A DNA stretch of 43,183 nt, from assembly GCA_964654875.1 (NCBI GenBank), contig CAZZKQ010000001.1, forward strand, positions 1-43,183. The letters are read 5' to 3'. The stretch comes from an uncultured Verrucomicrobiota bacterium (GTDB taxonomy: Bacteria; Verrucomicrobiota; Verrucomicrobiia; Limisphaerales; UBA9464). Within the stretch, counting starts at the first letter, position 1, and each line of letters opens with the position of its first letter. Below are positions 4,937 to 43,183 of this stretch, in pieces. The translations under genes were made by a program, and so were the position numbers. The notes beneath the pieces were generated by a model that made no database searches, had not been told where the DNA came from, and saw nothing but the letters and a program-made list of their open reading frames with translations.

Positions 4937-4941
4937 TCAAG

Positions 4942-19412: not shown

Positions 19413-19635
19413 ATCAAGAGGCCCAAGCGCAATCCGGACGGCAACTCGACACTCCCTATCTAGCTCAGCCCCAGGCTGTTTCACCACCACGAGACCTTAG
19501 GGTCCCCAGACCCAGTGTCCGCAGTGGCGTGGTGGAGTTGGCCTTAACAGGAGCAGAAAACACGGCCCACGCCGGCAGGAATCCGAATCCGGCCCCTACC
19601 GCTCCGCGAAAAACTCGGATATAAGGAGCAGGAGT

Positions 19636-22501: not shown

Positions 22502-23338
22502 ATGAGCACCACCATCAACTTCAAGGCCAGCGCCTTGAGCACCGAGACCCTGCAACTGGCCGCTCCGAGCATCTTTGCTCGGGGAGCCGCGCCGGGTTTG
22601 AGCCCCAGATACACCTTCGTCCCCACCGCGGACATCGTGGAGGGGTTACGCGAGGCCAACTGGGCTCCGGTGCACGTGGAAGAGCAGCGCCCCCGCAAGG
22701 TCGAGCGTCTGGGCTTCCAGAAGCACCTCCTCCGGTTCCGCCAGGTGGAGCAGATGCAGACCCTCGACGAGTGGAACGTGGAGCTGGTGCTCCTCAATTC
22801 CCACGACGCGGGCTGTGCCTATCAGCTCCATGCCGGAATCTACCGCCGGATCTGTTCCAACGGACTGGTGGTTTCCGAGGCGGGCTTCGAGGCGTTGCGG
22901 TTCCGGCACTCCGGCCTCGACCCCGTCGAGGTCGTCCGGGCCAGCCTGCGGGTGATTGAGTTCATGCCGCAGGTCAGTCGGCGCATCCAGGACTTCCGGA
23001 TGCGCTCGATGAGCTGGGGCGAGCAGCTCGCCTTTGCTCGGGCCGCTCTTGCGGTCCGTTTCGAGGAGGATGCTCCGGTGGACCCGGGCTCCCTCCTTCA
23101 GGCCCGGCGGGCGGAAGATTCATCTTCCGACCTCTGGACCATCCTCAACCGCGTTCAGGAACACCTGATTCGCGGTGGGGCTTCCGACGGACGACGAGAC
23201 CGAAATGGTCGACTCCGTACCGTGCGTGCCCTCCGGGGCATTGATTCGAAGGTGACGCTCAACAAGGCCCTCTGGGGTCTCGCTGAGCAGGTCATCCAAG
23301 GTTCCGAGCCCACCCCAACGGTGAGTCTGAGTGTCTAA
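22502..23338 (+). CDS. DUF932 (DUF945) family protein typical of integrative/conjugative element leading regions
   Basis: 278 aa from ATG 22502 (MSTTINFKASALSTETLQLAAPSIFA...). Also present are SPRYTFVPTADIVEGL..., LLNSHDAGCAYQLHAGIYRRICSNGLV..., and RFRH.... The ORF-track start at 22334 is probably too early. Confidence 0.8.
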   Translation: MSTTINFKASALSTETLQLAAPSIFARGAAPGLSPRYTFVPTADIVEGLREANWAPVHVEEQRPRKVERLGFQKHLLRFRQVEQMQTLDEWNVELVLLNSHDAGCAYQLHAGIYRRICSNGLVVSEAGFEALRFRHSGLDPVEVVRASLRVIEFMPQVSRRIQDFRMRSMSWGEQLAFARAALAVRFEEDAPVDPGSLLQARRAEDSSSDLWTILNRVQEHLIRGGASDGRRDRNGRLRTVRALRGIDSKVTLNKALWGLAEQVIQGSEPTPTVSLSV

Positions 23339-23858
23339 AACGCACCGGCTTCACTCGCGGACGGCTCTGAAGGTTTCCACGGCTTTTGAAGGATTGTGCC
23401 CCAAAACAACCCTTCACCCACTTTCAGGAAAACATGCTTACATTTATCGAACCGCCTCTCTACTTCGACGCGTCACCGAGGGCACCACCGTGGTCCGATC
23501 CAAGATACGCGCCGGGAGGAGCCTTTGGAGGACCCACCTTTCATTCGCTTCACCAACAGGAAGAGGCACTCCCAGCGTTAGACCCCCTTCCCTGCCCTGC
23601 TGCATCAGGCCCCGCACACGTTTCCCCGGCGACTGCCATTCAATCGGTGACGTGAGTCTCTCGGTCTCCGCCTTCTGCCCTCCTCCCGGGTTCCCTCCGC
23701 GCAGGCCTCGCGCCAGGACGGGCCCTGTCACTCGGACCTGCCCTTGCTCCGTGACCCCGTCCGTCAGGACGGCGGACCCGTGTTTCTTGCCGGAGCGGTC
23801 GTGCTCTCCCCGGACCTGCGAAGAGAGCACTCCCGCTCCTTCAAAACCCAAGAAACAC

Positions 23859-24395
23859 ATGACCGAGACGATTCACGCCACACCGATGATGCAGGCCATC
23901 GACGAGGCTTCCCGAACGGGAGCCAAGAAGTTCCGCAGCAAGACGCAGCCTCAGGAATGGGGGCTCATCTCACTGCGGGAATGCCCCCTCCCCAGCGAAT
24001 TGAAGGAATGCACCTGCCCTGCCCAAGCTGCCAGCTACTGGAACACCCACGTCCGCTCGAACCCATACTTCAACCCCGAGGTGGAATGCTTTGTGGTTCT
24101 GCTCCTCAACGTCCGCCGCAAGATCAAGGGGCACGTCCTGATCTCCACCGGCCTCATGGACCAGGTGCTCGTCCACCCCCGCGAAACCTTCCGCGCAGCG
24201 GTCATCGCCTCCGCACATTCCATCATCATCATGCACAATCATCCCTCGGGTGAACCCAACCCGTCTGAGGCAGACCTCCGAATCACCCGCGAACTGGTCC
24301 GCTCAGGCCAAGTGCTCCGCATCGAGGTTCTCGACCACGTCATCATTGGCAACGGCAACCATGTCTCTATACGGGAACTGGGCTATTTCAGCTGA
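23859..24395 (+). CDS. radC: RadC-like JAB/JAMM domain protein
   Basis: The JAMM motif is IIMHNHPSGEPNPSEADLRITREL. It is 178 aa from ATG 23859. The 528 nt of upstream open frame are Pro/Arg/Ser-rich and are not considered coding. Confidence 0.9.
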   Translation: MTETIHATPMMQAIDEASRTGAKKFRSKTQPQEWGLISLRECPLPSELKECTCPAQAASYWNTHVRSNPYFNPEVECFVVLLLNVRRKIKGHVLISTGLMDQVLVHPRETFRAAVIASAHSIIIMHNHPSGEPNPSEADLRITRELVRSGQVLRIEVLDHVIIGNGNHVSIRELGYFS

Positions 24396-26962: not shown

Positions 26963-29900
26963 TTATTCGCTGCCAGCAAGGTTTATTGTATGAACATATT
27001 CGTATGAATTTCCGATTACTGGGACAACGAAAAATAGGGACACATCTGCTTGAAATCCAACTCTCATAACAAAATCCACTTTATACTTCCAAGGTGTCCA
27101 GTAGCAACCATTGTTTAAATCGCACTTAAATGTGCTTTGAAATGTACCCATTAACTCTGCATTCCCATATATCGTCGGGGCCTTTTTGAGCCAGCGAGGT
27201 TTGATCGAAGATATTCGAGCGCCAGCCGAGAGAGACACTTTTCTAATGCCGTGCCCCGACCATCTGTTCTGGCAGTAATCATATTTCAGCTGAAAGCCCA
27301 TGGCACCACTTCCCTGCACCCGCCCAGTTACTCTTGCAAATTCCCGTAGGAGTCTAAGCGGGCCTGGGAAGAAAAAGCTCGCTTCAACTTCCCCTTCAAT
27401 TGCTAGTTGAGCCTGCCCTGTGGTCTCAATGTCTGCCCCCTCTCCTCGCATGGTGCAGCATACGTGACAATATTTACCTTCAACCCGTCCTTGGCTTCTC
27501 AGTCGGAAATCAAACCCCGTCCAGTCGGACAGACTATCAAGAATCTTAGGTTTTTCAAAATCCCATGTTCTACGAAATGAATCGCAGTGTTTTAACAATC
27601 CTAACTCATCTAGTGACCCGATTGAATCATTGTTAACAAATGCATATATTGCGATACCTCCATTCTCTTCAATTGGATCTCGCGAGAGCCAGCGTCCAGT
27701 GGATGGTGAAAAATAGCGATAACCGTAATAGAGAAAACCGGATTCTTTTTCAGTATATTTGGTGGAAAACCCAAATGGATTTTGAACTGCAACTACCCCA
27801 GTCTCACGGATACGTTCTCCAAAGGGGCCATACTCGTAGGTCGCGGATGGAATAGCAGACGCTCCATCGACTAGAAGTATCACGTTGCCGTTACCGTCAC
27901 AGGCTGAGAAATGCAGAGTTCCAGAACCAGTGTTTACCGCGAGTAGCCCGCCGGTCCCGCCCGCACCACGAAATGTTTCGCTTATATCGTATCCCCAAAG
28001 ATACGATCGTATTATGGTACTGCTGCTATCTAGTTCGGCCATGAGGTTCCAACCATCGTAGAGGAACTTAAGATCGGTAGCAGGCGAACCGGTGCCACTT
28101 GTATTGTTCCAACCCTTTTTGCGGACACGTCGGCTATTCCCGTCATACTCGAAATCCAGCCGCTGCTGCGGACCGACCGCCGTGGCGGCAACCATGCGTA
28201 TGAGACGGTTTTCGGCATCCCAAGTGTAGTTCCAGCGTCCGTCACGGAGTTGGTTGCCGTCGGCATCGTAGCCTTCGTTGACCGTCGAGGTGGCCGGATC
28301 GTCATACAGTTCCGGCGTCTTGGGCACGTACAGGTTACCAGTGCTGGTGGTGCTGCTGGCCCCGTTGACGGCCTGGATGGAAAGCGACTGCCAGACCGGA
28401 TTGGAACCGTTGCTGACGCTGACCTCCTTCCAAAAATACTCTCCCCGTTCGTAGGCCGCAGCGCTGTTGACGGTCACTGTCGCGGCACCCTCCGCAAGGC
28501 CATTCACTTGAACAACACCGGGAACGGTCCGGCTGACATACTGGTTGAGCAGGTTTGGAGTGTAGGTGGCCGACTGGAGGTTCTGGCCGTTGGCATCGCC
28601 GCCAAACTTCGCAGACAGGCGGTTGCCGATGGTATCGAAACCGTATTCAAACTGCTGGCCGGCGACGGGAGTCCCGTCCAGCCAGTAGCGTCGTCCTGAC
28701 GTTACCTGCCCCAAGGAGTCATATTGGTAAAGCCAATAGCTGCCGTCGTTCAGCGTCACGCGGGTGCGCTGGTTCGTATCGTTATAGGCATAGCTGAACG
28801 AAACCGGCATCTGCCCGCTGCCAGCCGGGGTAGCCTGTGTGTCAATCAGCCGCTCCAAGCGGTCGTAATTGCGGCTGACCGTGAGCCGGGTGGTCGTGCT
28901 CTGCTTGGAGGTAATCGTGCTGATGAGGCGCGAGTTGGCATGGTAGGCGTAAGTGGATGAATAGCTGCCATCGGTGACCGATTGCAGGCGACCCGCTGTG
29001 TCGTAGGCATAGCTTTGGCTGATGGTCGTGGACGTGTTCGCTCCCAGCGAATTGCGCCGCAGATAGCCGTCGTAGCCCACCGTCACCGTCAGTCCGCTCA
29101 ACGTGCCACCGCTGTAACCTTCCCCGGTGAATAATCCCGCATCGTTGAAGTTGTGTGTGGTCGTTGAGGCCGCTGAGGCGGTGTCGTTGAGAATGGTGGG
29201 GGAGGAGGTTCCGGACGTGTAGAGCTTGGTGGTCGTGCGTCGTCCGCGCCGGTCATAGTTATACCGCAGCGGCTGGGTTTCGGCGTCGTTGGAGTAGATC
29301 ACGGCCGCCAGGTCGCCATGCTGGTCGTTGGTCACGGTATCGTCGAAGCCGTAGTGATAGGTGGTGAGGATGCGGTTGCCCCCGGTGCCATTGCGCGCCC
29401 ATTTCCGCGTTTTGAGCCGTCCGGAGTTGGAATAGGTATATTCGGTGCCCACCGACTGGCCGTGATATACCTTACTTTCCAACCATCCGCGGGTGCTGTG
29501 GTAGTTCCAAGTGGTGGTGGCCGCCCCACTGCTGCTGCCAAAGTTCTGCCACGTCACCATCGTCTTCATCCGGCCCTGGTCATCATAGGTATATTCCACC
29601 GGATAAGTCCGGGTGCCCCAGGTTTTCTTGAGCAGTCCGGTAGGGAAATATTGATTGTTCACCATCCCGCCATCCGGCAGAGAGACTGTTTCCACCTGCA
29701 GGGACGCGTTGTAAGTGTTGATGGTGGTTTGAGCCGCATGACCATTACCGGGAGCCGGCGTCGTCACCGATGCGATCAAGTCCGCCCAGTTGTAGGTCTG
29801 GGTGGTAGTTCCGTTGCGTGCATCCGTCTGGGTGCTCTGCCGGCCGTGCGTGTCGTAGCCAACGGTCACCGAAGTCACTTGGGAACTTCCGGATGTATAG

Positions 29901-32452
29901 GACTTGACGCTGGTCAAACGACCGCCGGTGAAAGTCTGTACCACGTAGGAGAGATCGGGGGCGGTGGTCCTGACCGTCCGTGTGGTTCCCGGAGTCGTCA
30001 GCGTCACTGTGGTCACAGGGGTGCTTTGATCCTTGTAGCTCACTGCCCAACGTTGCAGACCGGAAAGGGCTTCATCCACCGTGCTAACCAAGGCCGTGCT
30101 CGCCGAATTGACTGCGGTCCACACCCTAGTCTCCGTGCGTCGAATGGGCATGCCCCGACCGTTGCCAGCAGCGCCGGTATCCAAGTAAGTCACAAGTGTT
30201 TGTGTTACGCGATCCGGACCCGACTGCCCTGCATCGTAATTATCAACGTAGCTGTCCTGATCCAGATCCACCGCAGTGACGACCAGTTGTCCCTGGCCAT
30301 CGTAGCGGAACAACTGAGTGACCCCATCGGCGTCCACCTCCTTGGCCTTCTGGCCGTAGCCGTTGTAGTAAGTGTAGGCAGCTACCGAGCCGGGCCAGAT
30401 CACCTTCACCGGCCGTCCCGCTCCATCCTGGCACTGGGTTACCGTCTCACCCGTGTCCGTACCGTTGGCTAGCAGCTTGATCTGTTGCGTTGAACGCAGC
30501 GACCGGGTGGAACCGTTATAACTGGTGCTGGTGACACCGTACACATAGCGCACAAGGGACACCGCAGTTCCGGTCGTTCGCTCCGTTCTGCCGTCCGCCA
30601 GAAACCTGTCAACACGGGTTCCTCCGTCGGGATTGGTCTGCGTAACCTGGTCGAAATTGCCGGTGACTTTGGTTCGGGCAAAGGAGGTGACCCCGTAGAG
30701 AGTTGCCGAGAGGAAGTTGGTTTCCTTGGTTTTAAAACCGGTGGTGTCGTATCCATAGCCCTTTTGGCTGATGGTTGACGAATCAGTCCCGATTCGCCCT
30801 TCCTCAACCACCCTATCAGCCGCATCCAGAACTGTGAAACTGGTCACATTGTAACGGACCACGATGGTCTGACGCCCCAACGCATCATAGTCAAACGAGG
30901 TGACCGTGCCGTCCTTGTCGGTCTGGCTCGCAAGCCCACAGCAGGCATAGGTGGCCGTCTTGTAGAGACCGTCCAAGTAGTCAAAACGCTGGGGGCGACC
31001 GAAATCCTCAAAATTGCTGGCAACAGTGCTTTCAACCAATGGACCGACACTGCTGCCCTGAATGGCCCATTTTTTATGTGACTTCAAGATGCCGGTCGGC
31101 GAGTAAACATCTTCTACTCGGAAGCCTTCGGCGACCGTCCACCCGCTGCCGTCATGCTGCCCGGAATCGGCCACTGTGGTCTTGGTGCCATCCACATCGA
31201 TTGTGGTGGTTGGCAACCAAACGGTACCATCCTGGCTGACACGGCGCAGCACGATGGTGGTGTCATAATCATACTCGACCACCGATTCCAATTTGTCCGA
31301 TTCGCTTGCCAGTGCGGTGATCGAGGTGAGTGGATTTGGGCAGGTGACCATCCTGTGATAGGCAGGGGCGTACACATGGTACGTCCTGCCTACCAAGGTC
31401 CCCTTCCAAAACTCCTCTATTTTCCTCGGACTGTCCGGCTCACGATCCAAAGTATCATCAGCGTGCTGTGCGGCGTAGGAATAGGTCACCCGCCGGGCGA
31501 GGCTGGCGGTAGTTGTGGGCAATGAATCAATCCCGTGTAGCTCGGAGGTCACCCGCCCGCTGGCGTCATAGCTCTCCACGAGCCGCCATGAACCATCAGC
31601 CAGTTCTTCTGTGTAGATGGGGGGGGTGGAACTCGTCGGGGAAAACGGCAGCCCACTGGTGTAATAACTCCAACGATTGGTACGGACATCGCTGCCGACC
31701 CCTTCCACCTCCTGCAGCATGACTGTGCCCCAGGAAAGGTTGGTAAATACCTGACTACGCTGCGCAATAGTTGTCCCGGCGCCATCTTTGTAACGTTTGA
31801 TCAACGTCCAGGCTGTGGGGGCGTGGTTGGTCGAAATTAAGTCCACAGAACCGATACTAGTCGGCAAGGTCAGCGTCCATCCCGATATGCCATTACTATA
31901 GGCGAACAGCCATTCCGCGCTGGTCCCCGTATCCCGGACCTTGACCCGATTGTTGGCACTGCTGGTGTCTGGGTTTTCAATGGTAAATTCACGAAGCAGA
32001 TAGGCAGAACTCGAATTCACAGCATAGCGGCCACCGCTCAAAGAGCCTTTAGCTGCAAGCTTCATAATACGGAAAGTATATTTGTAGGATGTGTTGACGC
32101 TGATGTTAATGAACACACGAGGCGTCACGATCTGGGCAAAACGACCGGAGCTGTCATAGACCACTTCCAATTCGGACGAGGTGATATCACCCTCGAACTG
32201 CAATCCAGCAGGATCACCCAATAGGTTAGAACCCTCGGTACTGCGAAGCACCAGTGCCCCCAAATGCGATTGCATGTCGCCGGGACCAAGATCCGCCCTG
32301 AACAGGGTGCCCACGTCAATTTCACCGGTGCTGTTACCCGTGCCGCAGGAACCGCAGCCGCCAACGGCCAAAGGCACGCCCCACCCTGGGATTTCGCCCG
32401 CATGTGCTGTGTGGAGAGTCCAGACTGCGAAAAATAATAGGAGCCACTTCAT
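26963..32452 (-). CDS. rhs: RHS/YD-repeat polymorphic toxin (Rhs-2) with a Sec signal peptide and a 210-aa unclassified C-terminal domain
   Basis: The signal peptide is MKWLLLFFAVWTLHTAHA. There are many YD repeats. The core ends YRYFSPSTGRWLSRDPIEENGGIAIYAFVNNDSIGSLDELGL. The tip (26966-27595) is low GC and beta-rich. Confidence 0.9.
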   Translation of the reverse strand: MKWLLLFFAVWTLHTAHAGEIPGWGVPLAVGGCGSCGTGNSTGEIDVGTLFRADLGPGDMQSHLGALVLRSTEGSNLLGDPAGLQFEGDITSSELEVVYDSSGRFAQIVTPRVFINISVNTSYKYTFRIMKLAAKGSLSGGRYAVNSSSAYLLREFTIENPDTSSANNRVKVRDTGTSAEWLFAYSNGISGWTLTLPTSIGSVDLISTNHAPTAWTLIKRYKDGAGTTIAQRSQVFTNLSWGTVMLQEVEGVGSDVRTNRWSYYTSGLPFSPTSSTPPIYTEELADGSWRLVESYDASGRVTSELHGIDSLPTTTASLARRVTYSYAAQHADDTLDREPDSPRKIEEFWKGTLVGRTYHVYAPAYHRMVTCPNPLTSITALASESDKLESVVEYDYDTTIVLRRVSQDGTVWLPTTTIDVDGTKTTVADSGQHDGSGWTVAEGFRVEDVYSPTGILKSHKKWAIQGSSVGPLVESTVASNFEDFGRPQRFDYLDGLYKTATYACCGLASQTDKDGTVTSFDYDALGRQTIVVRYNVTSFTVLDAADRVVEEGRIGTDSSTISQKGYGYDTTGFKTKETNFLSATLYGVTSFARTKVTGNFDQVTQTNPDGGTRVDRFLADGRTERTTGTAVSLVRYVYGVTSTSYNGSTRSLRSTQQIKLLANGTDTGETVTQCQDGAGRPVKVIWPGSVAAYTYYNGYGQKAKEVDADGVTQLFRYDGQGQLVVTAVDLDQDSYVDNYDAGQSGPDRVTQTLVTYLDTGAAGNGRGMPIRRTETRVWTAVNSASTALVSTVDEALSGLQRWAVSYKDQSTPVTTVTLTTPGTTRTVRTTAPDLSYVVQTFTGGRLTSVKSYTSGSSQVTSVTVGYDTHGRQSTQTDARNGTTTQTYNWADLIASVTTPAPGNGHAAQTTINTYNASLQVETVSLPDGGMVNNQYFPTGLLKKTWGTRTYPVEYTYDDQGRMKTMVTWQNFGSSSGAATTTWNYHSTRGWLESKVYHGQSVGTEYTYSNSGRLKTRKWARNGTGGNRILTTYHYGFDDTVTNDQHGDLAAVIYSNDAETQPLRYNYDRRGRRTTTKLYTSGTSSPTILNDTASAASTTTHNFNDAGLFTGEGYSGGTLSGLTVTVGYDGYLRRNSLGANTSTTISQSYAYDTAGRLQSVTDGSYSSTYAYHANSRLISTITSKQSTTTRLTVSRNYDRLERLIDTQATPAGSGQMPVSFSYAYNDTNQRTRVTLNDGSYWLYQYDSLGQVTSGRRYWLDGTPVAGQQFEYGFDTIGNRLSAKFGGDANGQNLQSATYTPNLLNQYVSRTVPGVVQVNGLAEGAATVTVNSAAAYERGEYFWKEVSVSNGSNPVWQSLSIQAVNGASSTTSTGNLYVPKTPELYDDPATSTVNEGYDADGNQLRDGRWNYTWDAENRLIRMVAATAVGPQQRLDFEYDGNSRRVRKKGWNNTSGTGSPATDLKFLYDGWNLMAELDSSSTIIRSYLWGYDISETFRGAGGTGGLLAVNTGSGTLHFSACDGNGNVILLVDGASAIPSATYEYGPFGERIRETGVVAVQNPFGFSTKYTEKESGFLYYGYRYFSPSTGRWLSRDPIEENGGIAIYAFVNNDSIGSLDELGLLKHCDSFRRTWDFEKPKILDSLSDWTGFDFRLRSQGRVEGKYCHVCCTMRGEGADIETTGQAQLAIEGEVEASFFFPGPLRLLREFARVTGRVQGSGAMGFQLKYDYCQNRWSGHGIRKVSLSAGARISSIKPRWLKKAPTIYGNAELMGTFQSTFKCDLNNGCYWTPWKYKVDFVMRVGFQADVSLFFVVPVIGNSYEYVHTINLAGSE

Positions 32453-33632: not shown

Positions 33633-36600
33633 TCACTGCAGTGGTGTAAAAACCACAAGAGCGGCAGTTCCAACACCGACTCCATTCGATACGGCAGGAT
33701 CGCTTTCGCCTGTATCTAAGTAATTATTACCGTTTCGGTCCTCAACGTAGTCCGGTATACCGTCTCCGTCGGCGTCATTTGGAACTCCAAATGTATTGAG
33801 ACCGATGTAATGAAAACCTAAATCCACCGTGGATGGAGTATCAGCACCTTCCTTAGTGGAGTTGGCCGACTTCACCGTGAAATGATACAAACCTGCCGTT
33901 TCACGAGTCCGACTGCCAGCGTCGATGAGCGTTGCCAAACTCGGTGCTCCTCCCGAAGCAGGGTAGTACCGAACACCCCATACTGCGTTGGTTTGATAAT
34001 CTATACTTAAGCCCGTTTTGTCTCCGGAACCGACGTAGGTATTGGTCGTTCCAGAGGTAAAACCATTATTCGAGCGCGTGACCGAGGCCGTGGAGTTTCC
34101 ACTCAGTGTCTGACTCGTGCCATCGAACAAGTTATCCTTGATGACCCATGTTGGATTGGAAGTTCCGCTGTCATACGCAACCTGAAGCGCCCCTCGCCAG
34201 AACAGGTTGTTGTAGGCGGAGAATGTCAGGGGCGTGTTGTACGAATAGTAAGAGTGATTGACGCTGACTGTAGCGCGTTCGAAGAGGTTGTTTCGCAGAA
34301 CCACAGCCGAGCTCGAACTATCGATCGGCCAAAGGTTTGGGATTCCCACGTTGCACGATTGGCAGAACTCGACGGTGACCGAGGCGAACGGTTGCGTGTT
34401 GCCCGTGTCCAAGAGGGTCGTTCCCGATTTGCTGAGCGCTGTAAGTTCCGTAAACCGGACGGAGACCACCGGCCGCGTACCGTAGCTGGCGGTGATCTTG
34501 GTCATCGGCCCCCCGTTGCCCTCGCCTGTCCACTGCTCTTGGACATTATGCCAGCGAGTCAACCGGTTCATATTATCGGCACGCCCCTCGCCGATGAATT
34601 GACTGCCGTCTTGGAGATCCACCCCATAGGTGCCCGCCACTGCCACCGCTACGCCGTTGGTCAGTCGTAGGGGGACAGTGAGGTTGACCGCCTTGAGAAC
34701 GTAATCCAGCGGGACATAATGGTAGCCTTTATCCGGCTGATCGGTGTCGCGCTGGACGCGCGGTGATAGCGTGGTATCCAGATTGACCGCACCGGTCAAA
34801 ACCAACGGGGCCTCCGTGGTCATGACCTTAAGTTCCGTCGCCAATTTGGAGTCAATGTTAGTGGTCCCCGAATTACGGTAAGAACTACCACTCACCAGAT
34901 AGTGGCTGCCCCCGGAGACCACCTGAAACAAGCCAGTGCCTGCGCTCGCGGTCTCTACCGAACTATTTTGATTGGTGTAACTCCCCGGAGTCGCAACCTG
35001 AACCAGCAGGGAGTTCCTCAGGGTCACGGCAGCCGCCGAGTTGTAGTTGAACTGGGTTGCTTGATTCACCGTGAGATGTTGGCCATCCACCGTGGCTGTG
35101 GACCCAGCGAGTACCCTGTTGACGTTGTGGAACAGCACGTTATGGAGGTGGACCGTGCTGACCGGATCCACCCCCTCCTGGCATCGCACCACCTGCCCGT
35201 GCCGGACGGTATGCTCGGTGCCCCCGGAGAACTCCAATGCTCGGCGCTGATGAGTCAGACGCACATGAGTCAGCGTGACATTTGTGCCATTGTTCAAAAC
35301 CAAGGTACCGCCAGCCGAACCATAGTAGCTGTTCGTGGGAACTCCCGTCGAACCCGTGATCAGCTGTCCCACCGTGTTGTCGTCCTTCGCCGTGAACACC
35401 ACGGGCCGGTAGGCGGTTCCACCGAGATCCAGCGCCCCTTGGACCTCGAGCTTGGCTGTCGTGCTCGAGTCGATTTTCAAGACCGTCCCCCCTTCGAACG
35501 TGGTCTTACCTGTCAGAACCACCGCACCAGAGATGTAATAGGTTTCGTCGCTCGCGAACGTGTAGTTGGTCTGTGAGGTGTTCAGTGTGAGGTAATCGAG
35601 CACCAATCCTGGACGGGACAGATTCGCAACCACATCAGACTCACGCCCACGATCCAACCGGCGCACCTGAAGTTTTTCGACATCCGGACGGCGCACCTTT
35701 GCTGGCCGCTTGTTGACAACCTCAAATCGATTCTTCTGCGGCCTCCCAAGCGATGCACCACCCTTTGACCCAGGAAGTTCATCCAGGCCGCCAGCAACGG
35801 CTGACAAATCAACAGACTCCACCAAGAAGCGTCGCCCACCGGGATCCACCATCCAGTGCTTGACCACCAACGTTAGCGACTCGTTTTCCCGCCCTAGGCG
35901 AAACGTGCGGCCACTTCCGATCTTGGCGAGGCCAAAATCCAATTCCTCATCCACTGAATGTTCAACAGCCCGACCTTCACCTCGGCGCTGACGCCGCACT
36001 GGCTCAGGGGCCTGTTCGAATTCAGTCCAAACCTCCAAACGGGTTGTCTCCGGGTTCAGACCGTAGGCCGTTGGATCCGGTGGGGTTTCCCGAAGGATGA
36101 TGTCCTGCTCAAAGCCCGCTCGGGTGTAGGTGTAACGAACATCCGCTCTCACCCCATTGAACGCATCCGGATAGACCAGCTCGTTCGGTGACACCAGGAG
36201 CCCCTGACTATCCTTAACTTCAGCCACCAGGACCGACTGCCCGGATTTCATGTCGAAGTACGCCAACCCGTAAACATGACTCGACATCAGACCTCCGTCT
36301 GGCAGGCGCATCTGTACTGCGCCTGCCATGTTAAGGTTGGCCGCAAGACTCACCTTGTGCTGTCCCTTCCAGGCAATAGCTGCACCTGGAATCAGCTCGA
36401 ACTCGGCACGGCTTTCCTCCCACTGCCCCGACTCATTCCAATAGTTCAAACCGGTCTCAAGCTGCACGTAGGAGTTGGTCTCGGTCAGGGTATTCCCCAG
36501 TTCGTCCACCCATGACACCACAGATTCAACCACCTGATGGTGTGGCCCACGTTCACGGATATAATGCTCACTTTGGGCACGGCACGGGGGGAGCAAAAAC

Positions 36601-36662
36601 AACCCAATGGCACAGGAGAAAAAGAGGCAGTTGAACGTCCCGGGAGGAAAGATCCGTTTCAT
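33633..36662 (-). CDS. Large secreted protein (1009 aa) with a parallel-beta-helix-like central region and a C-terminal Ca-binding (thrombospondin type 3-like) Asp-rich repeat
   Basis: The signal peptide is MKRIFPPGTFNCLFFSCAIGLFLLPPCRAQ. It has repetitive N/G/T/V-rich beta-strand periodicity and DADGDGIPDYVEDRNGNNYLDTGESDP near the C-terminus. It is the first gene of the locus-2 operon. Confidence 0.7.
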   Translation of the reverse strand: MKRIFPPGTFNCLFFSCAIGLFLLPPCRAQSEHYIRERGPHHQVVESVVSWVDELGNTLTETNSYVQLETGLNYWNESGQWEESRAEFELIPGAAIAWKGQHKVSLAANLNMAGAVQMRLPDGGLMSSHVYGLAYFDMKSGQSVLVAEVKDSQGLLVSPNELVYPDAFNGVRADVRYTYTRAGFEQDIILRETPPDPTAYGLNPETTRLEVWTEFEQAPEPVRRQRRGEGRAVEHSVDEELDFGLAKIGSGRTFRLGRENESLTLVVKHWMVDPGGRRFLVESVDLSAVAGGLDELPGSKGGASLGRPQKNRFEVVNKRPAKVRRPDVEKLQVRRLDRGRESDVVANLSRPGLVLDYLTLNTSQTNYTFASDETYYISGAVVLTGKTTFEGGTVLKIDSSTTAKLEVQGALDLGGTAYRPVVFTAKDDNTVGQLITGSTGVPTNSYYGSAGGTLVLNNGTNVTLTHVRLTHQRRALEFSGGTEHTVRHGQVVRCQEGVDPVSTVHLHNVLFHNVNRVLAGSTATVDGQHLTVNQATQFNYNSAAAVTLRNSLLVQVATPGSYTNQNSSVETASAGTGLFQVVSGGSHYLVSGSSYRNSGTTNIDSKLATELKVMTTEAPLVLTGAVNLDTTLSPRVQRDTDQPDKGYHYVPLDYVLKAVNLTVPLRLTNGVAVAVAGTYGVDLQDGSQFIGEGRADNMNRLTRWHNVQEQWTGEGNGGPMTKITASYGTRPVVSVRFTELTALSKSGTTLLDTGNTQPFASVTVEFCQSCNVGIPNLWPIDSSSSAVVLRNNLFERATVSVNHSYYSYNTPLTFSAYNNLFWRGALQVAYDSGTSNPTWVIKDNLFDGTSQTLSGNSTASVTRSNNGFTSGTTNTYVGSGDKTGLSIDYQTNAVWGVRYYPASGGAPSLATLIDAGSRTRETAGLYHFTVKSANSTKEGADTPSTVDLGFHYIGLNTFGVPNDADGDGIPDYVEDRNGNNYLDTGESDPAVSNGVGVGTAALVVFTPLQ

Positions 36663-36887
36663 GAGGGGAAGCAGGTTTGATTGCAGAACGGGAAGGGAGA
36701 GGGCGCGAAGCAGTCGGTAGGTTTGCTAGGGTCGGAATCCAGAATTCCTCACACCAGCCCCTGGCTTGGTTTCTTCTCGGGTATGAAAACCGAGTACTAG
36801 AATGCTCTTCTGAGGGCAATTATTTTTCTTTCTTTTTCTTATTTTCCCATCCTGGGTGCGTTTAGGAAGGCCGCGGTGCCCTATGTC

Positions 36888-37140
36888 AGAAACCCCGGAT
36901 TCCAGCCGCTTTGCCAGAGGCCTCCCCGGTAACCAAGGGGAGACAAAAGGCGGGACTCGAGAAGATCCCGCCAAGAAGGGCGATGCCTCGGAAGAACAAT
37001 GGGAACATCGAGATTGGGTGATGTTTGTTAGGTTCAACCCAAAGCCCCCCTTTGGGGGGAAGACCACGGGCTCTGGGATGCGAAACGCCTGAGTCCTTCA
37101 TAACCTTACGCAGAATCTTTCGCTTTTTTTGAGGACCAGA
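36888..37140 (-). promoter_or_regulatory. Second copy of the rhs leader plus a signal-peptide stub (truncated by a stop at 36886-36888)
   Basis: MKDSGVSHPRARGLPPKGGLWVEPNKHHPISMFPLFFRGIALLGGIFSSPAFCLPLVTGEASGKAAGIRGF* aligns with the Rhs-1 N-terminus. The upstream ~130 nt align with 19274-19412. Confidence 0.6.
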
Positions 37141-37215
37141 ATTATGGCCCAACTTGGACCCCAGCCAATGTCACTCTTTGGCTTGGCCACAGGTCGTTTT
37201 GCTCCTTACACGACC

Positions 37216-37905
37216 TCACATGAGCACCAGCAGGGACGAAACCACGAACCTGATGGACTCCATGCACACGGTCGCCTGACAGCGACCGGCGGTCCCCAGA
37301 TTCAGAAGTTCATCGGTCAGGACCACCAGGTGCCGCATCAGTTTGCGGGAGGGCTCGTCCAGGTTTTCCCCAAGGCGCGAGGCGAAGAAGGAGTCCAGGA
37401 CGTGAACCGCCACCCTCGGCTGGCTCACATCGACCCCGCTTAATTCCTTGGGGTACACGCGGGCCACCACATGGGCCGCGGCGCACAGGACCCGCTGACA
37501 GAGGACCCCCACCCGACGGTAATCCGGCTCAGGCATGAAGAAGCAATCGTCCAACGACTGGACCAGTCGGTGCAGCTCCCGGATTCCCAAGGCTTCAGCC
37601 CTCTCGGATTGCAGAAATGCACCTGTTTCTTTCGGGGTCGGTTTCTGGACGGGCGTTTCCTCCCACGGGGGGAGGTCGGCCGAACGACCCGAATCTGCTG
37701 AAGACTTGGAGCACACCCCAACGGGGCGCCTTTTGGGGCCGATGTCGGACATCAGGACCTTCCACGAACTCCCCAGACTCGCCTGAGCACGTTGCCATTC
37801 CTCCACCGTCTCCTCGCTGACCCCCTCGATGGGCTCAACGTCACTGCGCTCCTCCAGAAGCACCACATTCGTCTGACTCGTCTCCTTCTTCGCTGCCTTT
37901 CCCAT
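37216..37905 (-). CDS. Hypothetical protein (229 aa)
   Basis: The ATG at 37905 is preceded by GAGGAG at 5-nt spacing and lies 12 nt after the upstream stop. No motif recognised. Confidence 0.55.
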   Translation of the reverse strand: MGKAAKKETSQTNVVLLEERSDVEPIEGVSEETVEEWQRAQASLGSSWKVLMSDIGPKRRPVGVCSKSSADSGRSADLPPWEETPVQKPTPKETGAFLQSERAEALGIRELHRLVQSLDDCFFMPEPDYRRVGVLCQRVLCAAAHVVARVYPKELSGVDVSQPRVAVHVLDSFFASRLGENLDEPSRKLMRHLVVLTDELLNLGTAGRCQATVCMESIRFVVSSLLVLM

Positions 37906-37917
37906 TTTCACTCCTCA

Positions 37918-38565
37918 TCACGACATCGGTCCCGACTCGAACGGCCTCACCGGCCGTCTTCGCCACGGCAGGACCTCGCGTGGCACGGGCTCCAACCCGG
38001 CGACCTTCCGCCGCCGGTTGATGGCCCTCCAAATCATGAACACCTGGTTCCTCACCGGCGCGTACCGCTCGAAGGGAAGTTGCGCCAACTCCCGTGTCAG
38101 CCTTTCGACCGTCCACCGGGGAGCCATCTCCTCGAAGTACGCCTTCAACTCCAGGTACTGGCGGCGCTCGATCCGGACCGAGGCGTGCCAACGGCCCCCT
38201 CCCCTGCCCCGACGGTAACTCACCGAGTACCCGCAATAGCACAGGGGGCTCTCCCGGATGTCCCGCACCCGGTCCCCCTCGGCCTCGAAGAACACACCCT
38301 CGCCCCGGGTGGCGATCACCACCCAGAAACGCTCGTGCCTCAGGTAATGGAGGTTGGCCTGTCCGGCCTTCTTCTTGCGGGCTCGGGCCCACTTCGAGAT
38401 GCCAATGCCGTACTGGGTCATGAGCTTCCGGTCCGTCCGGGCGGGGTCCTTCCTCTCAGGAATCACCCCGCTCACGTAGAACCAGTACCCCTTGGCCACA
38501 TACGCCACGGCGAGCTGCTGAATGAACCCGGCCAGGGTGACACATTCGTGTTGGTATCTGACCAC
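37918..38565 (-). CDS. Arg-rich hypothetical protein (215 aa from the GTG start)
   Basis: The GTG at 38565 is preceded by GGAGG at 7-nt spacing. The ORF-track start at 38718 would add 51 codons overlapping structured RNA-like sequence. Notable segments are KGYWFYVSGVIPERKDP... and ...YCGYSVSYRRGRGGGRWHASVRIERRQ.... I could not place the family. Confidence 0.5.
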   Translation of the reverse strand: MVRYQHECVTLAGFIQQLAVAYVAKGYWFYVSGVIPERKDPARTDRKLMTQYGIGISKWARARKKKAGQANLHYLRHERFWVVIATRGEGVFFEAEGDRVRDIRESPLCYCGYSVSYRRGRGGGRWHASVRIERRQYLELKAYFEEMAPRWTVERLTRELAQLPFERYAPVRNQVFMIWRAINRRRKVAGLEPVPREVLPWRRRPVRPFESGPMS

Positions 38566-38599
38566 GGCACAACCTCCACACGGGGTTATGGTGGAAGCA

Positions 38600-39697
38600 T
38601 GGGTGGAGGTTGCTTGGGAAAGGCGCAATCCTCCTAAAGCCCTGAAATCCTTTGGCCGGTTCGTACGCCCCACAGGGGTACTCTCCGACACATCCTTTTC
38701 CCGGTCGCAGACCGGCAAAAACTCTCACCTTCGCTCAAAACCTGGTCGGATTGCGGCAACGCTTCGGTCGACCCCGCTCTTGCTCGGGGGGTCTTTCCTC
38801 CTCGTTGCTGCATTCCCCTATGGCTGCTTCGCAGTAATAGAGGTAGCGCCTACGGCGCTTCCACAACCTCCGGCCACACGTCCGGTGCCCGGCCTTCATG
38901 CAACTGACACCCCACACCGCTCCTCCCGGAACAGTCTGAGGCACCCGCTTCGCTGGACTTCCCAACCCGGGGGCATGGAATGGACTCCCGTCCTCCCACG
39001 CCCCCGGCGGATACCAGTCGAGTTTTCTCGTCACCCCTTTCGGTCCGTCTTCCTGGCCTCGGCACCACCCGGTCGGCCTGACGACACGAACGCCACTGCC
39101 TTGCAGCGTCCCTGTGGCCCTCCCCCTTGGCATGGGGGCAAGCACTCCTACTTGAGGCACTCTCCCAGACTACAGCGTCCACCTGCCCTGACTTGGGCAG
39201 AACCCGGGCATCACCCCGGTGGCTGTACTCCTTCCCCGTTTAGCAATGACCTGCTGTCGAACCGAGTCACGTCGGCTGCCCCATTTCTGGAGCGAGGAAC
39301 GGATGACACGTCACGGGCTTCCCAGCCCGCCGTGGTTTGCAACCGGCACTCCCCTCCCCTTTTCAGGGTCGGGTTGCCTCCGGTCGATTTCGGGGGGCAG
39401 AACGCAGAAGCGCCCCCCTACCCACCATCCTTGGTTCCCTTCCGATTCGGCTCCGTCTCTCGGTTCCGTTACCGCTTCGCCCTTCCTGGGCTTTGCACCG
39501 TTGAGCTATTCGCGTTCCGCTTTTTCGGCGGATACCCGGTCCTGTCAGACCGGCTGGGGGTGTCACCACCCTCCAGGCTCCCGGCAGCGGCAGACGTTGA
39601 ACGAACCCATCACAAGGACTTTCACCCCGATAGCCTCTTGGGCTTTGGTCCGAACCCCGTCCGGAGGATTTGCGTCGGGCTCTTCCCGCACGCGCAC
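38600..39697 (-). ncRNA. Candidate group II ribozyme domains I-III(IV), starting at the 5'-splice-site consensus GUGCG (39697, repeated at 39691). The 3' limit is uncertain.
   Basis: About 1.1 kb of GC-rich sequence shows no credible protein signal (its only long ORFs are Pro/Arg/Ser-rich). The minus strand begins GUGCGCGUGCGGGAAGAGCCC... and is rich in purine-rich single-stranded motifs and loop-capped hairpins (CCGCCGAAAAAGCGG, GGUAACGGAACCGAGAGACGG) reminiscent of domain I. This is not verified by a covariance model. Confidence 0.4.
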
Positions 39698-39793
39698 CTC
39701 TTGAGTCATCACGGCCCCACTCTCCAGAACCCTTGCGGCACTGGTGTAGCGGGGTCTTTCACGGTCGCCCGCGAACCAGGCCGTTTCCGGCCC
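39698..39793 (-). other. 96-nt segment bracketed by the predicted 3' splice site (upstream) and 5' splice site (downstream). It is the predicted back-spliced (circular) RNA product if the ribozyme is circularly permuted.
   Basis: Its position lies between ...CUAUCUCAU| at 39794 and |GUGCG at 39697. It contains its own hairpins (GGCCGGAAACGGCC). The boundaries are predictions. Confidence 0.3.
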
Positions 39794-39896
39794 ATGAGAT
39801 AGAATCTGGCGATTACTCCGAACCCCTTGCGGGTCCCGGGATTACTGCCAAAAGCCTCTCTCGAACCGGACGAGCACGTCTCCGTGCATCCGGCTC
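39794..39896 (-). ncRNA. Group II intron domain V (39863-39896) and a domain VI-like hairpin (39796-39862)
   Basis: The minus strand reads GAGCCGGAUGCACGGAGACGUGCUCGUCCGGUUC. This is 34 nt with the AGC triad, a 2-nt bulge on the 3' arm and a GAGA tetraloop. It is followed by a long imperfect hairpin with a GCAA loop. The basal helix GAGAGAG/CUAUCUC leaves A39800 unpaired, 7 nt from an AU end. Confidence 0.7.
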
Positions 39897-40289
39897 TACG
39901 AGACACGAACCTGACGGGTGATGAAATCCGTCCCCTTATGCTGGTTGGTGACCAGCTTTACCGGGTGTTCGCGCCCGACTGGCACCGCCTTGGAAAGCGT
40001 TTGCTGACCATGACGACGACAGGGCAAAACCCTGCGCCAAGCACACTACCAGAACGGCGTTTGATAACCAATGGGGCTGGACGGCAGGACGTTATACTCA
40101 GCCGTTTCGGCGAACTTCAGTGGTTGTTTGAAATTATTGACCTTCACCCCCGTCTTAAAGGCAACGAACACCATCTAGGATGGTCTGCCTCACCGCATCC
40201 GGCTCTTCCGCAAACTGGCATAGACCGGCTCCACCACGTTTTCAAATCTGTCTCTCATCTCTGGCATAATGTTTTGGGCCTCCCTGCCT

Positions 40290-40934
40290 TTAGGCAATGC
40301 GATTCCATGGGCGACGCTGTGGGTTAACGAGCGTGCGAAGGCGGTCTGAAACGAAATTGTCGGTCTCTTTCACGTAGCGTTTTATCACAACTCCTAGTTC
40401 TACGAGTTGCCCGAATCGAATGTACCTACTTTGGCCGCCGCGATGAGCCACTTCTCCACGCAGAACAACGAAGTTGTCTATTGGTGCGAAACCCGTGCTC
40501 CATGCCGCGCCGATGTCTGAAATGGCGAGGAAGTCCTGAAAGAGGGGGCGCAACTTGTGGTACTTCGGCGTGTTAAGCTTTTCTACGCGCACTTTAATTG
40601 CGTCGGCGTAGACCTTAACCCACACCGGTGTTGAAAGGTGAGCCACATTCCATGCGTTCGCATTGTTGTTTGCGTGTTTCGTCACCTCCTGTTGAACGGC
40701 TGCGGGCAATCCGTTGATGTTCGGAAGGCGGTTAGCGGTGATCTGCGCGCCTTCGGCAATGACAGTCTCTACATACCGTTCCCACGCGGCGCATAGGAGC
40801 AGGAGACCTCCTCGTGTCAAGTGAGCTAATCCGCGCCTTCCTCTTCCTGTACCACTTTCTCGCCTGTGGAGCAGGACCAGCCGATGAACATCGGTCAAAT
40901 TCCGATTGAACTCTGTGTACGCTTCGGACGGCAT
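40290..40934 (-). CDS. HEPN-domain protein of the RiboL-PSP / MAE_28990-like (Abi-type) family
   Basis: 214 aa. The RxxxxH motif is LRGEVAH. The N-terminal pattern FNRNLTDVHRLVLLH...LLLLCAAWERYVE is as in RiboL-PSP-HEPN proteins. Confidence 0.7.
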   Translation of the reverse strand: MPSEAYTEFNRNLTDVHRLVLLHRRESGTGRGRRGLAHLTRGGLLLLCAAWERYVETVIAEGAQITANRLPNINGLPAAVQQEVTKHANNNANAWNVAHLSTPVWVKVYADAIKVRVEKLNTPKYHKLRPLFQDFLAISDIGAAWSTGFAPIDNFVVLRGEVAHRGGQSRYIRFGQLVELGVVIKRYVKETDNFVSDRLRTLVNPQRRPWNRIA

Positions 40935-41055
40935 CCTTGTAGTGGCCTGAAGGCCAAGCTCAGCGACGGCCTTGTGGTGCGCAAGGTGTGCTCACGAATT
41001 CCCGCTACGCTCGAAAGTGGGTCGGAGAGTCTTTTTACTGCCGCACTCTGTTGAA

Positions 41056-41298
41056 CTAGCCATTCTGCCTAGCCAACTCCGTAACACGAGCAATCTCTTC
41101 CTCCCACTTATCCAAATCTCGTTCGGTACGAAAAACCCGGCGGATGTCTGGTGACGCGTTGCCATACTCCGTCTGGACGACAACAACTCCGCCTCGCCGA
41201 ACAACCTCGCGCGCTATGTCTAGGAGCGCGGTATTGAACTGGCTTCCGCCGAGCGCAAGTGTGTCGTCGTATTGGTCTGATGTGATAGTCAGCCTCAT
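41056..41298 (-). CDS. Small hypothetical protein (80 aa) upstream of the HEPN gene
   Basis: It is on the same strand, 121 nt upstream of the HEPN gene. No motif recognised. Confidence 0.4.
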   Translation of the reverse strand: MRLTITSDQYDDTLALGGSQFNTALLDIAREVVRRGGVVVVQTEYGNASPDIRRVFRTERDLDKWEEEIARVTELARQNG

Positions 41299-41900
41299 AA
41301 GTATGATGTGTTACTGGGCCTAGCTGTATTTAGTATGCTTACAGGCGGGCTAACCACTCGGCACCACCGGTCAACCGCGTGGATTCACTGGGCCCCCTAC
41401 CCTCTTTTGTTTAGCGCAGCCAGCCATGGTAAAACCGAGGGGATGGTTTCAAGAGGTTTGAAACCCGCTGTCTCCCACGTTGGTGGGGACGCCCTGCAGG
41501 TGGGGTTCACCTGCTTTTTGCGACACATACCATGACAGGAAATCGACGGAATAAAGTGCGAGGTCATTAAGCGTCTCGGGAGGCAGGCCATTCATCGGGG
41601 CCCACACAGACAGATCACCTGTCCCCGCCTCCTCCAAGTTGTTGTTTCAGGCCGCTTGAGCATCTTTCAGGGTTCGGGACGTGTTTAGGCCAGCTGTGGT
41701 TTGGGGTGACGGTCAAAGCTTCAGCGACTCTTGAACAAGGTCGGTGCGACGGCCAACTCCGCCAAGTCCAGTTCAAGTTTGGTCTCCTTCACCTCCACAT
41801 TGACTCCGACTGTGAAGGCTGACTAGGTGGCGCGTTGCAGCTCGGCAGCGTCCTTGACAGGTGAAACCACCACAGGGGCCAAGGCAAATACACGTTAAGG

Positions 41901-42563
41901 TCATGGCACTGCAATGAATCGATGTTCTCGATTCGAATATCTCCACGATTCACTATTTGTGGATGCATAACTTGGAGTCGACGATTTATAATCTTCAATA
42001 GATGAGAATACAGCATTTTTACGAACAACCGTAATGCTAGGTAGTGATTCTATCGTGAATGCACCAATAAGCAAATCCGATTTAGATGAACGCAGCTCGT
42101 GGTCTGACCAGTTGTCCGCATTGATCTCCGCTGTCTTTCGTAACTTCCCATTAACTATAGACAATAAAAAATATTTTGCTTTCATTTCGCCAGTTCCGTA
42201 GGCTTCGATAACATATATAACCAAATGCGATACTTTTCCTGAAGCGTTCCACAAGGGTTGAACATTAAAAGCTCCCGGCCAGGCAATTTTATCTTTTATG
42301 CGCCCGTCATTTGACAACAACAAAAACAATCCCCGAGCCGCCGTCGGCGTTTGCCACAGGCAATAAGCAAAACGAAATGTCGCCCCAGTTGCCGCATCGG
42401 TGCCAGCAACAACCTGGTGGCTATCCGCCTCACTTTCCATACTCATTTCAATTTGTCTCTCGAAGGAAAACACATCACTATTGGATTTTTGCTTAGCAGC
42501 AGATGCGCATGAAGCGACACAAAGCGCTGCAAAGCATAGTGACAAAACTGGCCATATCTTCAT
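41901..42563 (-). CDS. Lipoprotein, candidate periplasmic immunity protein for the Rhs-3 cell-wall hydrolase tip
   Basis: The start is placed at ATG 42563 (MKIWPVLSLCFAALCVASCASA, lipobox VASC), which overlaps the Rhs-3 stop (ATGA at 42560-42563). It is low GC. Confidence 0.65.
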   Translation of the reverse strand: MKIWPVLSLCFAALCVASCASAAKQKSNSDVFSFERQIEMSMESEADSHQVVAGTDAATGATFRFAYCLWQTPTAARGLFLLLSNDGRIKDKIAWPGAFNVQPLWNASGKVSHLVIYVIEAYGTGEMKAKYFLLSIVNGKLRKTAEINADNWSDHELRSSKSDLLIGAFTIESLPSITVVRKNAVFSSIEDYKSSTPSYASTNSESWRYSNREHRFIAVP

Positions 42564-43183
42564 GCGATGGGGCGATTCTTGCATTTCCATATGTCTTGGC
42601 TGCAACCACGAACGGTAACCTTCTTGCAATTTCCCTTGCGCACCTCATCTTCTTTCATCCATTTAGGAGTCTTGTTCTTCGTCCAGAAATACTGAGCTCC
42701 TCCTGTTGGGTCTGTTCCTGGATTATCGCATATACTAACGATTGGTTTTAATCTTTTCGCCGTAGCCGAAGCGTCGTTTTTGCAACATTGGTCAAATTTT
42801 GGCGCTTTTGATTTGTTAAATCCGCAACCGAATGCTGAAGACATTGCTTGACCGCAAAAGTCGGTTTCGCCTTTAAAATCTGGCCAGTTTGTATTCTGTC
42901 GATTGGTCATTATCCAATAATCAACGCGTTCACATCCGGCTTCGCCTTCACAATACAACATACAGACACAACACGAATAATCATCTCCGTCGTCACTACA
43001 ACATCCATCGGTATCTCCCCCTTCTCTGGTTGGGGCAAGTCCCATTGAATCTATCAGGTTCAATGCGTTATTCAGGACATAATCATAACTCTGTGTAATA
43101 TATTCATATTCCACAAGGTCCCTGCTCGCCCATCGTCCGAGACCTGTGTGGTAGTAGCGGTAGCGGACCTGGTAGAGGCCTGA
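42560..43183 (-). CDS. rhs: 3' end of a third RHS/YD-repeat toxin (partial, continues beyond the window) with a SleB-like cell-wall hydrolase C-terminal domain
   Basis: The frame is open to the window edge: GLYQVRYRYYHTGLGRWASRDLVEYEYITQSYDYVLNNALNLIDSMGL, the RHS core end plus a DPxGL equivalent. The tip has MLYCEGEAG...IMTNRQ...GGAQYFWTKNKTPKWM, compared with SleB VYSEARGE...VLNRV...GGALYYYNP..TSKW. Confidence 0.8.
   Translation of the reverse strand, partial: SGLYQVRYRYYHTGLGRWASRDLVEYEYITQSYDYVLNNALNLIDSMGLAPTREGGDTDGCCSDDGDDYSCCVCMLYCEGEAGCERVDYWIMTNRQNTNWPDFKGETDFCGQAMSSAFGCGFNKSKAPKFDQCCKNDASATAKRLKPIVSICDNPGTDPTGGAQYFWTKNKTPKWMKEDEVRKGNCKKVTVRGCSQDIWKCKNRPIA

Follow-up and report, generated by a model that had tools for sequence, protein, structure and literature searches.

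A probable circularly permuted group II ribozyme next to an acpG homolog in an uncultured Verrucomicrobiota bacterium

The stretch of DNA analysed here (the window) comprises positions 1–43,183 of the forward strand of contig CAZZKQ010000001.1 (GCA_964654875.1), from an uncultured Verrucomicrobiota bacterium (Limisphaerales; UBA9464). Its minus strand holds a 1.4-kb non-coding stretch that contains, at ~39989–39002, a structured RNA core of roughly 990 nt, followed by a gene of 215 amino acids (38565–37918) in the same orientation. This RNA is very probably a circularly permuted (CP) group II ribozyme, with a predicted circular product of 23 nt and a co-oriented homolog of acpG as the next gene. 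CP group II RNAs have their domains (D) ordered D5–D6–D1–D2–D3–D4, preceded by the elements P1 and P2, carry a stem-loop in the short linker that separates the reversed splice sites, and often have the gene for AcpG/TTHC007 next to them (Roth et al., 2021, PMC8637638). Roughly 290 of them were first reported, the published set coming from Deinococcus-Thermus, Firmicutes, and Proteobacteria, and the five members tested in vitro yielded a circle and a branched RNA (Roth et al., 2021, PMC8637638). A ribozyme of the class, Cte 1 of Comamonas testosteroni, has been studied by cryo-EM (Ling et al.), and a 2026 structural preprint on the class addresses only the reaction pathway. A previous reading of the window made without database searches (the sequence-only reading) had already assigned the RNA to this class, and both homology to validated members and covariation support that assignment. 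It had also remarked on the absence of a reverse transcriptase (RT) or maturase gene, and none was found among the 25 open reading frames (ORFs) of the window scanned against Pfam. The interval which it gave (38566–39896) needs a slight correction, since the conserved region starts 85–130 nt upstream of D5 (~39989–40032) and the core ends at ~39002.

For comparison one genome per species was scanned, which gave 197 relatives, and 80 loci were kept, mostly from metagenome-assembled genomes of Verrucomicrobiota and Planctomycetota, with some from Acidobacteriota, Nitrospinaceae, and others. Two alignments were used, one of the full-length RNA with 42 sequences, in which helix partners were slid as control, and one of the junction (D5, D6, linker, and start of D1) with 22 sequences, controlled by 500 column shuffles and by slid partners. 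All coordinates of RNA features given below are on the minus strand of the window.

The most recognizable part of the RNA is D5–D6, where the Rfam model RF00029 (Intron_gpII), the check proposed together with the initial claim, matches 39898–39794 over its whole length (49.9 bits compared to a gathering score of 40, E 5.5e-7). D5 (39896–39863) reads GAGCCGGAUGCACG-GAGA-CGUGCUCGUCCGGUUC and has the AGC triad, the GNRA loop, and the 2-nt bulge on the 3′ arm that had been described from the letters alone, and 8 of the 14 pairs show compensatory changes. Five pairs lead up to the bulge, whose nucleotides are UC in the window and a pyrimidine followed by any nucleotide (pyrimidine-N) in the family as a whole (“UN” being typical of the CP class), unlike the AY of canonical introns. 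In D6 (39860–39796), whose helices are 95–98% paired with compensatory changes in 10 of 15 pairs, the RF00029 alignment leaves the branch adenosine A39800 unpaired, 6 nt before the terminal U39794, and shows the expected CAU terminus. The domain ends at this nucleotide, which places the 3′ splice site between 39794 and 39793, and the ending UUCUAUCC(C/G)AU is kept across the family.

Directly 3′ of D6 lies a linker of 23 nt (39793–39771, GGGCCGGAAACGGCCUGGUUCGC), the predicted circular RNA, with a GAAA-capped hairpin that folds at −11.6 kcal/mol; linkers in the family are 12–142 nt long, with a median of 26 nt. The linker is followed by the 5′ splice-site motif GGGCGA (39770–39765); the intron starts with G39770, which is predicted to take part in the 2′–5′ branch. 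All 42 family sequences carry this motif without change, save for one C at its third position, and it is found as well in the Polaromonas, Thermus, Geobacillus, Calothrix, Leptolyngbya, and B. cereus relatives. Sequenced circle junctions of the class have established NU at the 3′ and GGGCG at the 5′ splice site as the conserved nucleotides, with circles of 15–86 nt that exclude the GGGCG motif (Roth et al., 2021, PMC8637638). For Polaromonas, the published row counts exactly 32 nt from the D6 terminus to GGGCGAC, the same as the circle size published for that species. A common junction motif can be read in the published rows of Thermus (GGGCGACCCGGACAG) and Polaromonas (GGGCGACGCAGAAAC) and in the window (GGGCGACCGUGAAAG), with a stem-loop after each of them. 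Since the class 5′ splice site GGGCG sits at 39770, the predicted circle is 39793–39771, of 23 nt.

A second line of evidence for this junction comes from the pairing of exon-binding site 1 (EBS1) with intron-binding site 1 (IBS1). The last 6 nt of the linker (GUUCGC, 39776–39771) would be IBS1, and EBS1 (GCGUUC, 39405–39400) lies in the loop of the D1 hairpin 39418–39392. At this one aligned loop the two are complementary in at least five of six positions in 34 of the 42 sequences, with compensatory changes that are evident in examples such as GAAUAC/GUAUUC, GAAGAC/GUCUUU, GAAAC/GUUUC, or CGAGCG/CGUUCG. Judging from the aligned sequences, this covariation with the nucleotides before GGGCG is the interaction described by Roth et al. 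These results bear directly on where the RNA would be cut. It had been proposed that the 5′ splice site is GUGCG at 39697 and that the circle would be 96 nt long (39793–39698), with a search for EBS1 and EBS2 complementary to the nucleotides before 39697 as a check. Both GUGCG copies (39697–39693 and 39691–39687) are indeed present, the motif fits the canonical group II 5′ consensus and is found in 34 of the 42 family members, and the D5–D6 of this lineage is closer to that of canonical introns, as it matches RF00029 whereas those of Thermus and Polaromonas do not. However, the copy at 39697 is inside D1, past the basal helices in which 39764–39704 covaries with 39251–39236, and excision of 96 nt would destroy this domain. 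In addition, the motif is predicted to be partly paired in the consensus fold (G39697 itself is paired), it is missing at the equivalent site in the validated Polaromonas RNA and in the Calothrix and B. cereus relatives, whereas GGGCGAC is universal, and EBS1 covaries with the nucleotides before GGGCG, the motif used by the published class and excluded from its circles. The same ribozyme with a 96-nt circle is thus very unlikely, and the 23-nt circle bounded by GGGCG is the one that we retain.

The rest of the core could be followed from one end to the other in the consensus fold of the 42 sequences, where all helices are 79–100% paired, compared to 10–62% when slid, and most pairs show compensatory changes. 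The 5′ leader upstream of D5 (39989–39898) contributes two strands, 39989–39974 and 39903–39898, that pair with 39022–39002 and 39031–39026, respectively, forming closing helices in the D4 position (79–99% paired with four to eight compensatory pairs each, and 25–61% when slid). Between them a leader stem (39973–39967/39910–39904) encloses a P2-like hairpin (39956–39940, loop UCACCAA) and another hairpin at 39932–39913. D1 (39764–39236) is closed by the basal helices 39764–39761/39239–39236 and 39712–39704/39251–39243, which are 93–99% paired with compensatory pairs in 4/4 and 8/9 cases, and its first subdomain is a hairpin at 39754–39715. D2 (39231–39167) has a base helix paired in 98% of cases with 9/10 compensatory pairs, and its hairpin 39220–39203 carries the loop GUGAUG, complementary to UCACC of the P2-like loop, as in the class-specific P2–D2 pseudoknot. 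It is joined to D3 by J2/3 (39166–39160), a purine-rich GGGAGAG with five of its seven positions invariant in the 42 sequences. D3 (39159–39032) has a base helix paired in 98% of cases and, near this base, an E-loop-like AGUAG/CGAAA motif whose columns are nearly invariant. The core ends with the 3′ strands of the closing helices (39031–39002), and nhmmer similarity to the more distant relatives (Planctomycetota) also stops near 39002. The tail, or 5′ untranslated region of acpG (39001–38566), has hairpins kept only in the close relatives (Verrucomicrobiota). The junction alignment gave a similar picture, with 29 of 41 pairs compensatory and 94.1% of the cells paired compared to 72.2% in shuffles and 35–51% when slid, and none of the 500 shuffles reached the observed value on any of five measures. 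Short ORFs overlapping the RNA fall within covarying helices. Downstream of D5–D6, where ~1.1 kb of structured-looking, non-protein-like RNA had been noted, ~1 kb has the support of covariation in the 42-sequence alignment and its slid controls.

This downstream structure is also what decides about two other readings, an orphan D5–D6 or the 3′ terminal part of a group II intron, canonical or in tandem (twintron), with unrelated sequence beside it. The Rfam D1–D4 models, a search suggested earlier as a refuting check, gave no match in 36000–43183 at E-values up to 10, as would be expected for an orphan. However, the validated Thermus and Polaromonas RNAs likewise match no group II family in Rfam, D1–D4 models included, and because of this the lack of a match is uninformative and the check loses its refuting value. 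A canonical D1–D4 upstream, the other arrangement that had been considered, is not present either upstream of 39990, where conservation ends at ~40032 and a HEPN gene follows. The junction and the downstream domains are conserved and covarying across more than 60 loci from several phyla, and the window has no second D5–D6. With conservation and covariation downstream of D6 already contradicting it, the idea of an orphan or of a canonical intron is hardly credible, and the permuted ribozyme is the reading that we keep.

Relationship to the published members was assessed with a covariance model of the D5–D6–linker–D1 junction (R1), trained only on Verrucomicrobiota and Planctomycetota sequences. 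Such a model was needed because nhmmer gave nothing or little on the published members, a single-sequence query finding no match in pTT8 and a profile query giving weak, although collinear, matches to published members. R1 matches the validated Polaromonas RNA at 136–340 over the full model (37.7 bits, E 1.6e-10), inside the published 33–834, and Thermus pTT8 at 5800–5723 (E 1.3e-4), inside the published 6026–4860; the E-values of R1 are rough, and the Polaromonas match is far outside that uncertainty. Further matches of the model are the B. cereus relative and two copies in Calothrix. Within the window its only other match (23312–23463, minus strand, 15.6 bits, E 0.0013) falls inside two plus-strand ORFs (DUF932 and RadC), has no D5-like hairpin, and was discarded as a chance hit. 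Rfam release 15 has no model detecting the validated CP group II ribozymes of Thermus pTT8 and Polaromonas pPNAP05, so annotation based on Rfam sees only an orphan D5–D6 in this lineage and misses the published members altogether.

The RNA of the window is accordingly a new member of a described class, in phyla absent from the original paper. It shares with the class the D5–D6–linker–D1–D2–D3 order, NU and GGGCG at the 3′ and 5′ splice sites, a short hairpin-bearing linker, the pyrimidine-N bulge of D5, a branch A that is bulged, complementarity between the EBS1 loop and the end of the linker, a P2-like hairpin whose loop could pair with one in D2, a purine-rich J2/3, the lack of any ORF inside the RNA and of an RT nearby, and an adjacent acpG. 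The lineage of the window differs from the published class in its carriers, namely Verrucomicrobiota, Planctomycetota, and plasmids of Cyanobacteriota, in a D5–D6 canonical enough for RF00029 with the A of the AGC triad paired, in a D1 with an extra hairpin beside a GUGCG, in its long closing helices, and in having acpG nearly always directly downstream on the same strand, whereas published loci vary in orientation and distance. With canonical group II introns it has in common the D5 hairpin, the branch adenosine of D6, a D1 with EBS1, J2/3, D3, and presumably the two-step transesterification. Unlike them, it has a permuted domain order with internal and reversed splice sites, no RT or maturase, GGGCG instead of GUGYG as the 5′ motif, a circle and a T-branched RNA as predicted products instead of ligated exons and a lariat, and no apparent route for retromobility.

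Several observations weigh against this picture. The long helices between the leader and the post-D3 strand stand where the published consensus has a local P1 hairpin and a D4 hairpin, and the P2–D2 loop pairing is only modestly supported, with a mean of 5.1 bp compared to 3.9 in shuffles. No sigma-70-type promoter was found on the minus strand, with no signal above that of shuffled controls. Eight loci (L007, L022, L042, L044, L050, L055, L079, and L080) have acpG and at least 3.2 kb of upstream sequence with no junction at E ≤ 1e-5. Lastly, the IBS1/EBS1 pairing of the window itself (GUUCGC/GCGUUC) is weak, with four Watson–Crick pairs and two U–U, when most relatives have five or six of six. 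These mismatches, at positions where relatives pair fully, together with the surrounding mosaic island with its integrase and RHS genes, could point to a class member by descent of which this particular copy is catalytically impaired or a decaying relic. We consider this unlikely, given that the AGC triad, branch A, GGGCGA, J2/3, D3 motif, and all helices are intact in the window, as is the acpG ORF, whose protein belongs to a 99%-identical cluster with 195 member sequences. One EBS1–IBS1 position is moreover compensatory compared to the family consensus (A–U to G–C), which suggests that the pairing is maintained.

The gene at 38565–37918 (minus strand) starts directly 3′ of the RNA, the GTG at 38565, 7 nt after a GGAGG, being its most likely start. 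Sequence comparison indicates that it is a distant homolog of acpG. BLASTP of its product against TTHC007 found no similarity, and hmmsearch with the profile of the window family had no match in a six-frame translation of pTT8. However, profile–profile comparison (hhalign) of the window family with the TTHC007/AcpG family gave a probability of 94.2% (E 1.2e-7, 156 columns), and the published JackHMMER alignment of AcpG (Data S3) already holds sequences of the window branch, e.g., ...GYWFYVSGWIPER..SKWARLRRKRA-GYANIQYLR. Because these two approaches succeed where BLASTP and hmmsearch failed, we take the homology as real but distant. The first of the “two unknown genes” that had been pointed out downstream of the RNA belongs to the AcpG family, whose protein was already reported beside the class. 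The families resemble each other in being stand-alone proteins of similar size that are genetically linked to the RNA; identity between the window AcpG and the Thermus founders is only ~19%, and the window branch is far larger and has a fixed position 3′ of the RNA.

Searches with AcpG delineated a large family. At E ≤ 1e-3 the window protein retrieved 1,215 homologs, all of them devoid of Pfam domains, and a profile search of 1.84 billion representative proteins gave 1,952 AcpG superfamily clusters (50% identity) at the same threshold, nearly all of them stand-alone proteins of 200–300 amino acids; the longer members have no informative domain fusions. For the window protein itself, neither a PDB sequence-profile search nor Pfam, PADLOC, and NCBIfam gave a match. 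Its AlphaFold model (pLDDT 93.5, pTM 0.87) retrieved nothing from the PDB at E ≤ 1e-3 using Foldseek, the best structural matches being weak (E 1.9e-3 at best, TM ≤ 0.33) and corresponding to retron RTs, LtrA, Prp8, and Cas6-type RNases. This model suggests a palm- or RRM (RNA recognition motif)-like, nucleic-acid-binding fold, and nothing firmer. Among the later literature that we searched there was no paper assigning a function to AcpG.

When the 80 loci were examined with R1, the junction appeared upstream of acpG in 61 of them, in every case co-oriented with the gene. Of the 19 loci without a match, 11 offer less than 850 nt upstream of acpG, leaving 61 of 69 assessable loci with the RNA. 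The 1.4-kb non-coding stretch of the window is homologous to the DNA upstream of related acpG genes (nhmmer E-values down to 1e-134), with full-length matches in ~25 loci, and the plasmid homologs (from Leptolyngbya, Calothrix, B. cereus, and a Planctomycetes bacterium) are each preceded by 1.4–1.7 kb without annotation, in which RF00029 has a match in two cases. Nucleotide similarity between the window and its relatives is confined to 40032–37935, leader homology starting at ~40032–39976, and tblastn searches with the 231-aa ORF downstream of acpG, the HEPN gene, and three other neighbours found no matches in 85 related loci.

There are variations on this arrangement. In L056, L065, L012, L049, L025, L073, L014, and L015 the RNA is 1–3 kb further from acpG than usual, and in two of these, both from Limisphaerales/Verrucomicrobiota (L049:2862–3905 and L012:2839–3849, plus strand), an ORF of ~340 amino acids with a TrwC relaxase domain (Pfam E 7e-14 and 2e-11, respectively) separates the RNA from acpG. 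Among the plasmids carrying the module, those of the Planctomycetes bacterium and of Calothrix were typed as MOBF, which, together with the TrwC ORFs, hints at a link to conjugative DNA. The plasmid5 of Calothrix sp. NIES-4101 (L003) has two junctions in the same orientation (1645–1832 and 3796–3973), separated by ~2.1 kb and both preceding a single acpG homolog; they score 110 and 124 bits with R1, and neither of them matches RF00029. Several genomes have two or three separate RNA–acpG units: OY760937.1 (L009, L019), CAVTMT01 (L014, L015, L033), JADJXS01 (L061, L068), and CAINDV01 (L011, L081, L083). Multiple copies per genome are compatible with spread of the unit.

The genes surrounding the locus form a mosaic island with Lamassu/ABC-3C, PDC-S01, an OLD-family ATPase, a tyrosine integrase, two RHS genes, Fic, DUF932, and RadC, and the Pfam and PADLOC matches bear out the “defence and toxin island” proposed from the sequence. 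None of these genes recurs beside the module in other loci. Defence genes are found at 618–6645 (plus strand) and 9331–10941 (minus strand), comprising ABC-3C/Lamassu (CTD7, MC3, and LmuB, PADLOC E 2e-126), the PDC-S01 ATPase (E 4e-84), and the OLD-family ATPase (E 3e-62), with the integrase (7981–9129) between the two groups. The RHS-repeat proteins (13436–19444 and 26963–32452, both on the minus strand) have 2,002 and 1,829 amino acids and are accompanied by small downstream ORFs (including a TPR protein), the Fic/DOC gene (20455–21567), and the DUF932–RadC pair (22334–24395), so that the stretch looks like a polymorphic-toxin region in a context resembling that of integrative and conjugative elements.

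Closer to the ribozyme, the HEPN RiboL-PSP gene (40290–40934, minus strand, PF18735 E 1.8e-9) has the orientation of the conserved RNA, ends ~260–300 nt before it, and was not found beside the module in any other locus. On the other side, the 231-aa ORF (37216–37911, minus strand) starts 7 nt after the acpG stop. This is the second of the downstream genes noted as unknown; searches of Pfam, PADLOC, NCBIfam, and the related loci gave no match for it, and it is possibly not a genuine gene. A scan of the minus strand revealed no terminator-like site between the ribozyme and acpG, and co-transcription of the two is plausible.

By analogy with the five homologs tested in vitro, we infer that the window RNA is catalytic. 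The 2′-OH of A39800 would attack the phosphate between C39771 and G39770, and the freed 3′-OH of C39771 would then attack the 3′ splice site between U39794 and G39793, releasing the 23-nt circle (39793–39771). What would be left is a T-shaped branched RNA in which the leader–D5–D6 segment is joined 2′–5′ to G39770 of D1–D3. In the consensus fold the post-D3 strand pairs back to the leader and closes the wheel at the position of D4. If transcription runs through the tail, one could speculate that the acpG message is carried on this branched RNA. The most likely role, likewise speculative, would be that the ribozyme and AcpG work jointly as a small two-part accessory module that moves with plasmids and genomic islands, with AcpG as the RNA-binding partner.

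In topological terms, acpG takes the place of the RT/maturase ORF of canonical introns, as it directly follows the closing strand of the D4-equivalent helix. This D4-like place and the weak structural matches to retron RTs, LtrA, and Prp8 (alongside Cas6-type RNases) are the basis for another reading, in which AcpG would be a remnant of the intron-encoded protein and the RNA–acpG unit a single domesticated group II intron, permuted 3′ of its ORF. We think this improbable. If true, the acpG message would have a 5′ end with a 2′–5′ branch after back-splicing, and the protein would be a maturase-like cofactor that binds the ribozyme and lacks polymerase activity.

Taken alone, the locus of the window adds no new kind of element and no new principle. 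The comparison with its relatives indicates that ribozyme and acpG keep a constant order and orientation in this branch, as a unit of ~2.1 kb of which a genome frequently has more than one copy, located on plasmids or within islands. Both the class and AcpG extend far beyond what the first set of RNAs indicated, AcpG being abundant in Verrucomicrobiota and Planctomycetota. The regular arrangement of the two provides a cleaner and larger set of loci in which to ask what the joint role of ribozyme and AcpG may be.

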